Shown piece by piece: positions 36,395 through 52,293 of a DNA stretch of 64,000 bases. Positions within the stretch are counted from its first letter, which is position 1, and every line of letters starts with the position of its first letter. This DNA comes from a virus (Duplodnaviria; Heunggongvirae; Uroviricota; Caudoviricetes). A program made the position numbers and the translations under genes. The stretch lies in the IMG/VR virus record IMGVR_UViG_2718217789_000006. One strand, 5' to 3'. The notes beneath the pieces were generated by a model. The model ran no database searches, was not told the origin of the DNA, and saw only the letters and a list, made by a program, of their open reading frames with translations.

Positions 36395-36579
36395 TGACGT
36401 TCTCCGAAAATACCAAGTTCAAGAAGAGCAATTCGGGAAAGTATGGAATTATCATTGAGCAGATAAGGCTCATATTTCCTCATATTAATGGCATCTTCAG
36501 TAAACTCCCGGTTACTGAGCAGAACACCAATATCAAAACAACCTTCAGACGTATTAACGTTTGGTAATAACGTTTCCAT
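36391..36579 (-). CDS. dicB: Cell-division inhibitor DicB homolog
   Basis: 62 aa, METLLPNVNTSEGCFDIGV…FTEDAIN… closely resembles K-12 DicB. Confidence 0.8.
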   Translation of the reverse strand: METLLPNVNTSEGCFDIGVLLSNREFTEDAINMRKYEPYLLNDNSILSRIALLELGIFGERQ

Positions 36580-36756
36580 TATCGCGTCCTCAACAATGAA
36601 TTTTGTGATGCAGTGCCTGGTGCCTCCAGGTGACGTTAACCAGTTAACAATTAACGCCGGATTAGTTGATGCTCGTTACGCCCGTAAAATACCGCCTTAC
36701 TGCTTTAACTGTTCCGCGTGCGCATAGCCGCATTCACCGCATCACAAAATTCACTT

Positions 36757-36796
36757 TAAAAAGGGCGGATATCCGTTTCCGCCGAATCACCAGAAA
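36757..36796 (-). ncRNA. dicF: DicF-like small RNA candidate upstream of dicB
   Basis: Minus-strand sequence TTTCTGGTGATTC-GGCGGAAACGGATATCCGCC-CTTTTT: DicF-like 5' end plus terminator hairpin and U-run, about 180 nt upstream of dicB. Confidence 0.4.
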
Positions 36797-47017: not shown

Positions 47018-47392
47018 ATGCTCATAGATTTGGTTTTACCTTACCCGCCGACGGTGAACACTTACTGGCGACGCCGTGGCAGCACATATTTTGTATCAAA
47101 AGCCGGGAAGCGTTATCGCCGGGCAGTGGCGCTTATTGTTCGCCAGCAGCGACTGAAATTAAGCCTGTCCGGACGGCTGGCAATAAAAATTATTGCAGAG
47201 CCACCGGATAAGCGCCGCCGCGACCTGGACAATATCCTGAAAGCACCGCTGGATGCGCTGACGCACGCGGGGTTGTTAATGGACGATGAGCAGTTTGATG
47301 AAATCAATATTGTACGTGGAAAGCCAGTATCTGGTGGACGTCTGGGGGTGAAGATTTACCCCATAATGCTTGAAGGGCAGGTCAAAAAATGA
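47018..47392 (+). CDS. rusA: Holliday-junction resolvase RusA
   Basis: …RRRDLDN…GGRL… motifs as in E. coli RusA; about 120 aa. Confidence 0.8.
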   Translation: MLIDLVLPYPPTVNTYWRRRGSTYFVSKAGKRYRRAVALIVRQQRLKLSLSGRLAIKIIAEPPDKRRRDLDNILKAPLDALTHAGLLMDDEQFDEINIVRGKPVSGGRLGVKIYPIMLEGQVKK

Positions 47393-48210
47393 AACTGGAA
47401 GATTTACCGAAATACTACTCCCCAAAATCCCCTGGCCTGACCGATGCATCGGCCTCAACGTCAAAAGATGCGCTGAGTATCACTGATGTGATGGCCGCGC
47501 AGGGCATGACACAGAATCGGGCTGAGATGGGGTTTTCTGCGTTCCTTGGGAAAATGGGCATTAGTATGAATGACAGAGAGCGGGCAACAGAATTGCTGAC
47601 AGAATATGCACTCAGTCGGTGTGATCGCGTGGCGGCGTTAAGAAAACTCCCGGCAGAAATAAAACCGGCAGTGATGCGTATTATGGCTTCGTATGCGTTT
47701 GAAGATTATGCCCGTAGCGCGGCGAGCAAAAAACAGTGCCCCTGCTGTCACGGAAAAAAATTTATTGAAAGCGAGGTTTTTACAAACAAGATCCAGTATC
47801 CGGATGGTAAGCCGCCAGTGTGGGCAAAGTGCACAAAAGGCGTGTATCCGTCTTACTGGGAGGAATGGAAAAAAGTCAGGGAGGTGGTAAAAGTTGCCTG
47901 TCCGGAGTGTGGAGGGAAGGGAGAGGTATCCACTGCCTGTAAAGATTGTCGTGGGCGCGGTGTTGCCATTCATCGTGAAGAGTCGGAAAAACAGGGTGTG
48001 CCGGTTTTCAGAAACTGTCAGCGTTGTGGTGGGCGTGGCTATGAAAGATTACCTTCAACGGAGGCATTTAATGCCATATGTAATGTAACCGATGCCATAT
48101 CTCTTGATACATGGAAAAAAACAGTTAAACGTTTTTACGATACGCTGGTGGTGCAGTTTGATATTGAAGAAGCATGGGCAGAACAACAACTGAAAAAGGT
48201 GACCAGATAG
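47389..48210 (+). CDS. Q: Late-gene antiterminator Q (QuuQ-like, Cys-rich)
   Basis: 273 aa with four CxxCxGxG repeats; between rusA and the late region. Confidence 0.6.
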   Translation: MKLEDLPKYYSPKSPGLTDASASTSKDALSITDVMAAQGMTQNRAEMGFSAFLGKMGISMNDRERATELLTEYALSRCDRVAALRKLPAEIKPAVMRIMASYAFEDYARSAASKKQCPCCHGKKFIESEVFTNKIQYPDGKPPVWAKCTKGVYPSYWEEWKKVREVVKVACPECGGKGEVSTACKDCRGRGVAIHREESEKQGVPVFRNCQRCGGRGYERLPSTEAFNAICNVTDAISLDTWKKTVKRFYDTLVVQFDIEEAWAEQQLKKVTR

Positions 48211-48243: not shown

Positions 48244-48292
48244 TGCCCTAACGATGGGCGTTTTATGCCTGACGTTAGAAGATTTTTTACAC

Positions 48293-48314
48293 CCCGCCGC
48301 CTGGCGGGTTTTTT
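48293..48314 (+). terminator. Candidate tR'-like intrinsic terminator
   Basis: CCCGCC-GCCT-GGCGGG hairpin plus T6, about 55 nt downstream of the candidate promoter. Confidence 0.4.
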
Positions 48315-49843: not shown

Positions 49844-49951
49844 TATTGCAGAATTAACCGGGTATCAGGTACGCCCCGAAAATTTTAAATGTCTCACAAT
49901 TCAGACGGTTGACAGTTGTCTGGTTTGCGGGGAGTTTGTTAAAAGAAACTG

Positions 49952-50067
49952 GCATGGTGAATCCCCCTGAGCGGAGGGGCATATCAGCGCAGGTGTTTCT
50001 ACTCTATCCTTTCTGTGCGGGTTCAGGTGCTGATACTGAACTCACCGGGAGGCACCCGGCACCATGC
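49952..50067 (+). ncRNA. Conserved structured non-coding element (candidate sRNA), copy 2
   Basis: Same reverse-complementary outer arms and flank hairpins as copy 1, with a different central segment. Confidence 0.35.
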
Positions 50068-50091
50068 ATATGGTTAACAGACACGTAGCGA

Positions 50092-50117
50092 AGCCCCTCT
50101 CCGGAGGGGCTTTTTTT
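50092..50117 (+). terminator. Intrinsic terminator upstream of nanS-p
   Basis: AGCCCCTC-TCCG-GAGGGGCT hairpin followed by T7. Confidence 0.65.
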
Positions 50118-50346
50118 ATGGGCAAAAAAAGCCCGCGCTGGGAGACGCGGGCGGCAAGGAATAAACAACAAAACGTGAAGTAATATTTCAGCTGGCGAAT
50201 AATACCCCATGGTAATCACTCTGCGCAACTGCGCGGCCTTTTTCGAATTGCGGGCTGTAAGTCTCCCTTCTGCCATTGTCCTGTAACTTCCGAACTTCAG
50301 CCCGCTCTTTATCTGATTCAGTACACTATCCCGGCCGGGAGGATTC

Positions 50347-52293
50347 ATGACATTTAAACATTACGATGTGGTCAGGGCGGCATCGCCGTCAGACCTTGCT
50401 GATGCACTTGCGCAAAAAATTCGTGAAGGATGGCAACCATACGGTGGGCCGTTTTCTTCGTATACGGATGATGGCGCAGCACTTATTCAGGCGATTGTCG
50501 CAGAAGGTGATGTGAGCACACCTGTTGTGGTGAAGCCGACAGGTGGAGAAGGTGCAGTAATCAGTGCCACCAGCGACCCGGAGTATTACTTTGTTGTGGT
50601 TCTGGCAGGGCAGTCAAACGGCATGTCGTATGGTGAAGGTCTTCCGCTGCCGGAGACATATGACCGTCCGGAGCCGCGTATTAAGCAACTGGCGCGTCGC
50701 AGTACGGTGACACCGGGTGGTGTCGCCTGTAAATATAACGACATCATTCCGGCGGACCATTGTCTGCATGATGTGCAGGACATGAGCCGCCTTAACCATC
50801 CGAAAGCGGACCTGTCAAAGGGGCAGTACGGAACCGTGGGGCAGGGGCTGCATATCGCCAAAAAATTGCTGCCGTTTATACCGGCGAATGCGGGCATTCT
50901 GCTGGTTCCGTGCTGTCGTGGTGGTTCAGCGTTCACCACCGGAGCTGATGGCACATACAGTGACGCGAGTGGTGCCTCGGAGAATTCAACCCGCTGGGGT
51001 GTGGACAAGCCGCTGTATAAGGACCTTATCGGTCGAACAAAAGCAGCACTGAAGAAGAATCCGAAAAATGTGCTGTTTGCCGTGGTGTGGATGCAGGGGG
51101 AATTTGATTTTGGCGGTACGCCGGCAAATCACGCAGCACAGTTTGGTGCGCTGGTTGATAAATTCCGTGCAGACCTGGCGGATATGGCAGGTCAGTGCGT
51201 CGGTGGCTCTGCTGGCGGTGTTCCCTGGATATGTGGAGATACGACGTATTTCTGGAAGCAGAAGAACGAATCCACGTACCAGACGGTGTACGGCAGCTAC
51301 AAAAACAAAACGGAAAAGAATATCCATTTCGTACCGTTCATGACGGATGAGAACGGGGTGAATGTGCCGACGAACAAACCGGAAGAAGACCCGGACATTC
51401 CGGGTATCGGATATTACGGTTCGAAATGGCGTGACAGCTCAGCCACCTGGACGTCACAGGACAGGGCGAGCCATTTCAGTTCATGGGCTCGCCGCGGGAT
51501 TATTTCCGACCGTCTGGCAACGGCGATTTTGCGCCATGCGGGAAGAGTGGCGCTAAACGCGGGGGCATCATCGACAGTATCAGAGGTGCGCCCGTCATCG
51601 CCTTCCGGTGCAGAAGCCACAGGCGTCACAACACTGCTCTCTTACCTTGCCAGCGAGTCAGAGGGAAGCCTGAAAGTACAGGGATGGTCAGCCAGTGGCG
51701 GCAAGGCAGAAGTGGTCAGCGATGCGGAGGGAACCGGAGGTAAGGCAGTGAAGCTGACCAAGGAAGCCGGTAAAAGCAGCTGGGTGCTGGAGTACGCCGC
51801 GGGCAACGGTGCGGCTCTGTTACAGAAAGGGGGGCAGATTCGCTGCCGCTTTAAGGTTTCGGGAGCGCTGGCTGCGAACCAGTATGTTATGGCGTTTTAC
51901 TGGCCGGTATCTTCACTGCCACAGGGCGTTGCCCTGACCGGAGACGGGGGGAATAACCTGCTGGCAGCGTTCTACATCCAGACAGATGCAAAAGACCTGA
52001 ATGTGATGTACCACAATGCGAAAGTGGCGACAAACAACCTGAAACTGGGAAGCTTTGGCGCATTTGATAACGAATGGCATACGCTGGCTTTCCGCTTTGC
52101 CGGGAATAACAGCCTTCAGGTGACGCCGGTTATTGATGGTCAGGATGGCACACCGTTCACGCTGACGCAGTCACCGGTCAGTGCCTTTGCGGCGGATAAA
52201 CTGCATGTGACAGACATTACCAGAGGTGCGACTTACCCGGTACTGATAGACAGCATTGCGGTGGAAGTGAACAGCACAGACACTGCGGCATGA
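50347..52293 (+). CDS. NanS-p-like sialate O-acetylesterase (intact copy)
   Basis: 648 aa; first late gene; SGNH-esterase-like core (…VVVLAGQSNGMSYGEG…); paralog of 1773..3623. Confidence 0.7.
   Translation: MTFKHYDVVRAASPSDLADALAQKIREGWQPYGGPFSSYTDDGAALIQAIVAEGDVSTPVVVKPTGGEGAVISATSDPEYYFVVVLAGQSNGMSYGEGLPLPETYDRPEPRIKQLARRSTVTPGGVACKYNDIIPADHCLHDVQDMSRLNHPKADLSKGQYGTVGQGLHIAKKLLPFIPANAGILLVPCCRGGSAFTTGADGTYSDASGASENSTRWGVDKPLYKDLIGRTKAALKKNPKNVLFAVVWMQGEFDFGGTPANHAAQFGALVDKFRADLADMAGQCVGGSAGGVPWICGDTTYFWKQKNESTYQTVYGSYKNKTEKNIHFVPFMTDENGVNVPTNKPEEDPDIPGIGYYGSKWRDSSATWTSQDRASHFSSWARRGIISDRLATAILRHAGRVALNAGASSTVSEVRPSSPSGAEATGVTTLLSYLASESEGSLKVQGWSASGGKAEVVSDAEGTGGKAVKLTKEAGKSSWVLEYAAGNGAALLQKGGQIRCRFKVSGALAANQYVMAFYWPVSSLPQGVALTGDGGNNLLAAFYIQTDAKDLNVMYHNAKVATNNLKLGSFGAFDNEWHTLAFRFAGNNSLQVTPVIDGQDGTPFTLTQSPVSAFAADKLHVTDITRGATYPVLIDSIAVEVNSTDTAA

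Follow-up and report, generated by a model that had tools for sequence, protein, structure and literature searches.

Two prophages lying on one stretch of viral DNA each carry, upstream of their nanS-p gene, an element whose flanks are alike and whose centre is different. What does such an element specify, and which of its parts would recognise a partner? The stretch, 64,000 nucleotides long, is referred to below as the window, the element of the first prophage as copy A and that of the second prophage as copy B. A sequence-only reading had located the element at 1494..1600 and 49952..50067 and had proposed a structured RNA scaffold, with conserved flanks and a swappable targeting or recognition segment at its centre. 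Much of this proposal stands, as the element belongs to a structured non-coding RNA with its own terminator and an exchangeable centre; the part that does not stand is the assignment of the centre as the targeting segment.

A catalogued family of prophage small RNAs

An Rfam scan of the whole window matched RF02076 (STnc100) at 49923-50123 (148.1 bits, E = 6.9e-33) and at 1464-1636 (104.7 bits, E = 9e-22). The gathering score of this model is 47 bits and both copies match its 206 positions over the full length; by these E values the observation is far beyond chance. Copies A and B are complete genes of the already catalogued STnc100/PasD sRNA family, extending over 1493-1687 and 49952-50117, respectively, on the + strand, and lambdoid prophages carry such genes between the late-gene regulator and the lysis genes. 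The name STnc100 came first from Salmonella sRNA screens. The window copies have the promoter-to-terminator architecture and the lambdoid prophage position in common with RF02076, with no essential difference. The earlier reading is a correct rediscovery of this family, and its reservation that the region might prove to be an already described site partly applies, the region being a described RNA family.

Among 5,426 complete E. coli genomes, 2,409 (~44%) have matches to copy B, which occurs at up to eight places per genome and is unannotated in RefSeq; 298 phage records, mostly of Stx-converting phages, match it as well. The reading of each copy as an independent sRNA gene, its product an Hfq-binding prophage RNA of the STnc100/PasD/EcOnc27 family, is given a probability of about 0.8. 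The parts of the two genes are as follows.

49916-49945, + strand: putative promoter of copy B, read from the sequence, with a weak -35 TTGTCT (49916-49921) and an extended -10 TG-T-TAAAAG (49937-49945)
49952-50067, + strand: 5' domain of copy B (Rfam 148.1 bits; own model R1 93.6 bits; RNAfold; covariation; pseudoknot statistics)
49952-49959 with 50060-50067, + strand: P1 of copy B
49960-49962, + strand: junction J1/2 of copy B, AAU
49963-49979, + strand: P2 of copy B, with pentaloop UGAGC and bulged A49975
49982-49988, + strand: pseudoknot strand of copy B, UAUCAGC
49987-50018, + strand: P3 of copy B
50019-50026 with 50036-50043, + strand: P4 of copy B, whose loop (50027-50035) holds GCUGAUA at 50029-50035
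50045-50059, + strand: P5 of copy B
50068-50089, + strand: single-stranded linker of copy B, in the position equivalent to the PasD seed region (sequence; PasD2 alignment)
50090-50117, + strand: terminator of copy B, with stem-loop 50090-50113 and U tract to 50117 (terminator scan)
1456-1485, + strand: promoter of copy A, with -35 TTGATT (1456-1461) and -10 TAAAAA (1480-1485) (sequence; PasD2 alignment)
1493-1600, + strand: 5' domain of copy A (Rfam 104.7 bits; R1 94.1 bits; RNAfold)
1493-1500 with 1593-1600, + strand: P1 of copy A
1601-1687, + strand: linker (1601-1660) and terminator (1661-1679 plus U tract) of copy A (terminator scan; PasD2 alignment)

A known ribozyme, riboswitch or tRNA-like class was rejected for the element, where Rfam at gathering and at permissive thresholds returned only STnc100 and ARAGORN returned none. 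The true tRNAs at 442-517 and 618-694 are the only calls in the window by ARAGORN and the Rfam tRNA model.

Anatomy and covariation of the 5' domain

The 5' domain is a five-way junction of helices P1-P5, 108-116 nt in length, followed by a single-stranded linker and then by an intrinsic terminator. In a pairwise alignment the flanks of copies A and B are identical and their centres different, and RNAfold on the single sequences gives both the same five-way junction (-49.6 and -45.9 kcal/mol, z = -2.6 and -3.1). The exact limits of the domain are 1493-1600 and 49952-50067, in agreement with those read earlier. The reverse-complementary outer arms of that reading, GCATGGTG on the 5' side and CACCATGC on the 3' side, pair as P1, and its three flank hairpins are P2, P4 and P5.

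The folding and covariance check which had been suggested for these stems bears them out, through covariation as well as through the STnc100 match. From an alignment of 88 diverse units RNAalifold derived P1, P2, P4 and P5, and the covariance model R1 built from this alignment gave 153 matches from 100 genome loci, of which the 144 distinct sequences were used for statistics. Across these 144 Enterobacterales units, 95.3% of cells are paired versus 79.4% in shuffles, and double-change cells number 497 against 131 +/- 13 after shuffling; none of 500 shuffles reaches the observed value, and slid controls collapse. Both sides change in 15 of the 17 pairs of P1, P2 and P4. The covariation of P1 includes its inner GGUG/CACC; in P2, a UNNGC pentaloop caps a stem of 5 bp that carries one bulged base; and P4 shows free compensatory variation rich in G-U pairs, whose frequency indicates that the + strand is the functional strand. 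The flanks described as conserved are indeed identical between copies A and B, but P4 itself varies through compensatory changes across the family. P5 (CCGGG-AGGCA-CCCGG) is nearly invariant with few compensatory changes, which is partly because it served as search bait. J1/2 is AAU in 120 of the 144 units, and the loops and junctions AAU, UNNGC, GCG and AGGCA are near-invariant. The published RF02076 structure differs in pairing a U with an A atop P2, which covariation does not support, and in lacking the pseudoknot described below.

These results bear upon two readings that would take the element away from RNA. One is a DNA element, that is, a miniature transposon or recombination site with GCATGGTG and CACCATGC as its inverted ends, which would suit the terminal inverted repeats, the occurrence of up to 8 copies per genome and the mosaic flanks. 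However, the compensatory changes in the arms, including the inner GGUG/CACC, imply that an RNA pairing is preserved and not a protein-binding DNA sequence; as G-U pairs are common, the position and orientation in the prophage fixed and transcripts documented, this reading is exceedingly improbable. The other is a gene for a small protein, with the ATG in the 3' strand of P1 as its start codon and the GGGAGG of P5 ahead of it. In E. coli-type copies GGAGG does stand 11 nt before the ATG, and ribosome footprints have been recorded on some STnc100 copies of EDL933, with RCV up to 3.2 (PMC5331693). Yet the ATG is present in only 5 of the 144 distinct units, both it and the GGAGG are buried in stems, and the frames of 8 codons in copy B and 40 in copy A are unrelated, from which it follows, as had been noted from the two sequences, that coding is not conserved. 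A protein product has next to no probability.

The variable centre is a pseudoknot strand and a hairpin

In nearly all units the P4 loop has its complement in the 6-9 nt after P2, despite their differing sequences. The longest helix of this pseudoknot averages 6.4 bp, and exchange of the loops among units lowers the mean to 4.85 +/- 0.09. The pairing strands are UAUCAGC (49982-49988) and GCUGAUA (50029-50035) in copy B; copy A has AUCAGC (1523-1528) and, within the P4 loop, GCUGAU (1562-1567). As the 5' part of the centre is engaged in this pairing, the 'variable core' is a pseudoknot strand plus a variable hairpin, P3. That the two centres differ completely was seen again in the alignment, but part of each is a strand for the P4 loop.

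The diversity of the centre is large, with 93 classes among 197 unique sequences. The mosaicism extends to the neighbouring parts: in 56 E. coli-type units the upstream parts fall into 9 classes, the centres into 10 and the tails into 10, and 20 combinations of these classes occur, copy A being U5/C0/T4 and copy B U0/C8/T3. The centre is genetically swappable as a cassette, and the promoter and tail are likewise. The invariant P2 and P5 blocks presumably act as recombination joints at which promoters, centres and tails are reshuffled, and selection would act only on the pairing of the centre (pseudoknot, P3, P4), so that its sequence would be free to vary.

Could the conserved flanks act as a scaffold, with the centre as its programmable segment for recognition, for example through pairing of the P3 loop with a target or through kissing with another RNA? 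The exchange of the centre as a cassette between identical flanks and the very diverse P3 would speak for it, as would the differing seeds and target sets of PasD and STnc100, for which a common ancestry has been proposed and an association with the sialate esterase gene noted (Zhu, Shabalina and Storz, bioRxiv 2026, 10.64898/2026.05.13.724894). On the other hand, the pseudoknot takes up half of the centre and the remainder forms a stem whose loop varies in size, the seed of PasD lies in its linker, and the tail is swapped as freely as the centre. Moreover, in tandem arrays of the domain the diversity of centres may merely prevent misfolding between neighbouring units. This scaffold is unlikely. 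The centre gives no sign of being a seed and is structural rather than a demonstrated targeting segment.

Promoters, transcript ends and terminators

The promoter block of copy A aligns as that of pasD2 in strain E2348/69. RNA-seq data put the 5' end of PasD2 at an estimated 741157, on the first G of GCATGGTG, which is the first base of P1. Of the 9 E. coli-type upstream classes, 8 keep a block TTTGTTAAAA(A/G), containing the extended -10, at 6-7 nt before P1. At the copy B promoter a simple consensus promoter scan made no call, and a strict scan placed a promoter directly upstream in only 29 of the 144 units; a start at P1 is thus supported for the E. coli-type sRNA genes and is not universal. 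In Salmonella LT2, RpoD ChIP-exo signal has been found at STnc100 promoters (PMC10794520).

An intrinsic terminator had been noted within about 60 nt of each copy, and it begins 22 nt (copy B) and 60 nt (copy A) past P1, with 7-8 U after each stem-loop. In the alignment with PasD2 the terminator of copy A is homologous to that of PasD. The RNAs are predicted to run from 49952 to ~50117 and from 1493 to ~1687, i.e., ~165-195 nt. Across the units the linkers measure 1-118 nt and unrelated terminators have been swapped behind the same domain.

The order of promoter, domain, terminator and genes is the classical layout of an attenuator, and a multi-helix junction with a pseudoknot resembles many aptamers. 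The element might then act in cis as an attenuator or riboswitch, in which the sensing of a ligand or a factor sets read-through into nanS-p and the lysis genes, with the 'sRNA' as a terminated by-product. Against this, the domain has no conserved alternative pairing with the terminator, the range of linker lengths and the unrelated terminators behind the same domain do not suit such a switch, and a low-threshold Rfam scan returned no riboswitch family. A lysogen-active promoter reading into holin and endolysin genes would also be dangerous, and the terminated RNA of the relatives binds Hfq and acts on targets in trans. A cis-acting role is accordingly very unlikely.

The surroundings of the two genes fit the late region. 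The nanS-p of the first prophage (1773-3623, + strand) is split by an in-frame TAG at 2151-2153 into ORFs of 126 aa and 488 aa; that of the second prophage (50347-52293, 648 aa) is intact. Two intrinsic terminators at 48244-48308 (+ strand) directly follow a 273-aa Q-like gene (47389-48210). They are probably the tR' of the second prophage, which would place the DNA methylase gene and copy B inside the late operon. The element as a late PR'-tR' leader is rejected for this window, given these separate terminators directly after Q. Lambda 6S RNA and StxS resemble the window copies in being short terminated RNAs of the lysogen from the Q-to-lysis region, and StxS is also an Hfq-binding regulator; unlike them, the window copies are not the PR'-tR' unit, as Q has its own terminator pair at 48244-48308, and copy A lies ~1 kb downstream of Q and the tRNAs, unlike a PR'-tR' leader.

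A further gene faces copy B:

50124-50212, - strand: sRNA-like gene convergent with copy B, whose terminator (50152-50131) stands back-to-back with that of copy B; weak OmrA-B-like match (26 bits)

EHEC prophages are known to hold, in their late region, 'dyads' of convergent Hfq-binding sRNAs 3' of PR' (PMC4104026, PMC7873438), and the gene at 50124-50212 is the probable partner of copy B in such an arrangement.

The put RNA of phage HK022 is likewise a promoter-proximal, multi-helix phage RNA upstream of a terminator. Unlike put, the STnc100 element is followed by termination efficient enough for abundant sRNAs. A search of the HK022 genome with R1 and filters off gave no match (best 8.2 bits, E = 0.8). 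A put- or nut-like antiterminator was rejected, as P2 is not boxB-like given its covariation and termination past the element is efficient.

Published relatives and a proposed mode of action

Several relatives of the window copies have been studied by experiment. In EDL933, eleven STnc100 copies (STnc100_1-11) are all transcribed, with a Northern blot for STnc100_4 (PMC5331693). EcOnc27, the same RNA as sRNA103, overlaps the STnc100 copy downstream of stx2B and is both Hfq-crosslinked and Northern-detected; overexpression of sRNA103 raises fimZ and espA (PMC4104026, PMC7873438, PMC12711010). EcOnc27 and EcOnc13, both of E. coli O157:H7, were detected by Hfq CRAC (PMC4104026, PMC7873438). The stx2-adjacent copy overlaps sequence variants predictive of haemolytic uraemic syndrome (PMC12711010). 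STnc100 has also been detected in outer-membrane vesicles (PMC12370729), and it is among the most frequently annotated bacterial sRNAs without an assigned function (PMC9029176). In EPEC, Hfq RIL-seq uncovered PasD1 and PasD2, for which homology to EcOnc13 was noted; their chimeras map to the last ~50 nt, and the single-stranded linker of PasD contains, directly ahead of the terminator, the target-complementary motif UGUGAG (PMC8550237, Fig. S5).

EcOnc27, EcOnc13 and STnc100_1-11 belong to the same family as the window copies and occupy the same site, from the late promoter or moron genes to the nanS-p and lysis genes, convergent with an anti-sRNA gene. In contrast to the stx2-linked copy, the window copies lie behind a TerB-like ORF and a DNA methylase gene and not behind stx2B, and their centres and tails differ from it. 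PasD2 is like copy A in its promoter block, P1, pseudoknot logic, terminator and position upstream of a sialate esterase gene. PasD is unlike the window copies in its shortened P2 loop and reduced P5, and in its linker it has the UGUGAG seed, which both window copies lack. As the linkers of the window copies differ in the alignment from the PasD linker and from each other, the targets of the two copies probably differ.

In the proposed mode of action, host RNA polymerase would start at the sigma70 promoter, exactly at the first base of P1, transcribe the pseudoknotted five-way junction of 108-116 nt followed by a short unstructured linker, and stop at the intrinsic terminator, whose U tail would be the usual Hfq anchor. 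The product would be an RNA of ~165-195 nt, made in the lysogen from upstream of nanS-p and the lysis genes. By analogy with PasD, targets would be recognised by the linker adjoining the terminator rather than by the centre, and the seeds of the window copies would thus lie in their linkers.

The 5' domain would most likely be stabilising, a compact module that lengthens the life of the RNA by hiding its 5' end from 5'-end-dependent decay. This role is suggested by one RNA-seq table (PMC8550237, Table S2), in which both PasD RNAs reach very high abundance and show no change in delta-hfq (PasD1 log2FC -0.18, PasD2 +0.55), while PasA, PasB and PasC drop 4- to 100-fold; the text of the same paper describes PasD stability as Hfq-dependent on Northern blots. 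The unchanged PasD levels would fit an intrinsic stability with the 5' end buried in P1. Against a mere 5' clamp, the loops and junctions AAU, UNNGC, GCG and AGGCA are conserved more tightly than a clamp needs, and the domain may also bind a protein.

The 5' domain outside the small RNA genes

The window holds a third domain that the earlier count had passed over:

36605-36745, - strand: third, divergent 5' domain (R1 match at 36606-36744, 63.8 bits, E = 2e-16; annotation of the identical O157 region; sequence)

It lies between a DicF-like sRNA with its terminator (36797-36758) and the start codon (36579) of dicB (36579-36391), a place that makes it the leader of an mRNA rather than an sRNA with its own terminator. 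The same unit stands between dicF and dicB of the Qin prophage of E. coli K-12 MG1655 (1649453-1649582; 64.3 bits with R1). With the Rfam STnc100 model the window copy reaches 31.2 bits (36547-36765), below the 47-bit threshold; such dicB-leader units score 31-34 bits and are hence missed by routine annotation. A literature search for a described dicB leader structure found none.

The domain is met in several other settings. The 21-nt 3' motif CACCGGGAGGCACCCGGCACC occurs, among the matches listed, in prophage-like regions of many Enterobacterales, the genera including Salmonella, Citrobacter, Klebsiella, Enterobacter, Kosakonia, Pantoea, Erwinia, Rahnella and others. The domain is followed by a terminator in 81 of the 144 units (median linker 26 nt), by another unit in 13, by a tRNA in 4 and by none of these in 46, many of the last leading into small, uncharacterised phage ORFs. 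On a Pantoea plasmid, six units lie within 1.1 kb and form two- and three-unit transcripts with one common terminator. Pantoea arrays of four to six units (L155 948-1990, L193 4136-5928 and L178 6399-7835, all - strand) have some units only 9-20 nt apart, one terminator in common and every centre different. The tandem arrays sit after a Q-like gene, as single copies do. A type III toxin-antitoxin array, a candidate prompted by the tandem pseudoknotted units, was rejected, there being no consistent downstream toxin gene.

In a Citrobacter braakii prophage (L192 3717-5512, + strand) units are interleaved with tRNA genes, and one unit stops 9 nt ahead of a tRNA whose anticodon is CAT, an arrangement suggestive of co-transcription with processing of the tRNA type. 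In Kosakonia and Klebsiella relatives (L128 811-939, + strand; similarly L146, L148, L144 and L160), the domain lies ~80-200 nt upstream of a KdgM-family porin gene with no terminator between them, and a gene for a 569-aa protein follows the porin gene. Units of ~87 bits also occur in records labelled Prolixibacteraceae (L133, a 388-bp contig), Mucilaginibacter MAG (L170, a 1,625-bp metagenome-assembled contig) and Vagococcus (L189, on a 133-kb contig), where contamination or mis-binning is more likely than true presence.

The occurrences of the domain without an sRNA tail, in arrays and ahead of tRNAs, dicB and phage ORFs, suggest that it has its own function, for which the sRNA model does not account. 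It is possible, though tentatively so, that the 5' domain is autonomous, with the sRNA tail as one of several cargoes: it could be a protein decoy or sponge or a mark on the transcript, and the fates considered for marked transcripts are processing, protection from Rho or RNases, and recruitment of a factor to RNA polymerase. Such an autonomy would account for a domain that stands before dicB in the window and in K-12, 9 nt before tRNAs, before small phage ORFs and before the KdgM-type porin gene, that is repeated, with 2-3 units in a transcript and as many as six at one locus, and that keeps near-invariant loops and junctions. Yet clustering of 4,231 flanking ORFs for a conserved protein partner returned only generic late-region genes (Q, methylase, RusA, NinG-like, holin, endolysin, spanin and nanS-p), that is, no partner protein or conserved neighbour gene beyond the general Q-to-lysis position. 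The domain has no homology to the HK022 put antiterminator RNA, and the accumulation of terminated sRNAs implies that the adjacent terminator works, which argues against a processive antiterminator. The case for autonomy is drawn from context.

Significance

For copies A and B the reading as Hfq-binding sRNA genes is preferred, and it has consequences for the design of experiments: a structural, knotted domain makes up the conserved part, compensatory pairing holds the variable centre together, and the likely seed is in the linker. A literature search with the sequence strings of the element gave a PCR primer as its sole match, and the additions for which no published description was found are the pseudoknot, the reassortment of modules and the presence of the domain in further settings, namely the dicB leader, arrays and tRNA leaders. 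The side result that the same domain heads the dicB mRNA of K-12 and forms arrays elsewhere is the only one with a prospect of novelty. The ~110-nt 5' domain could, as a tentative reading, be an autonomous RNA module of lambdoid prophages across Enterobacterales with an undescribed function of its own. If this were true, one module would head Hfq-sRNA tails, tRNAs, the dicB mRNA and small phage ORFs and would be multimerised in arrays, and it might bind a host or phage protein or shield prophage transcripts from host RNA surveillance.
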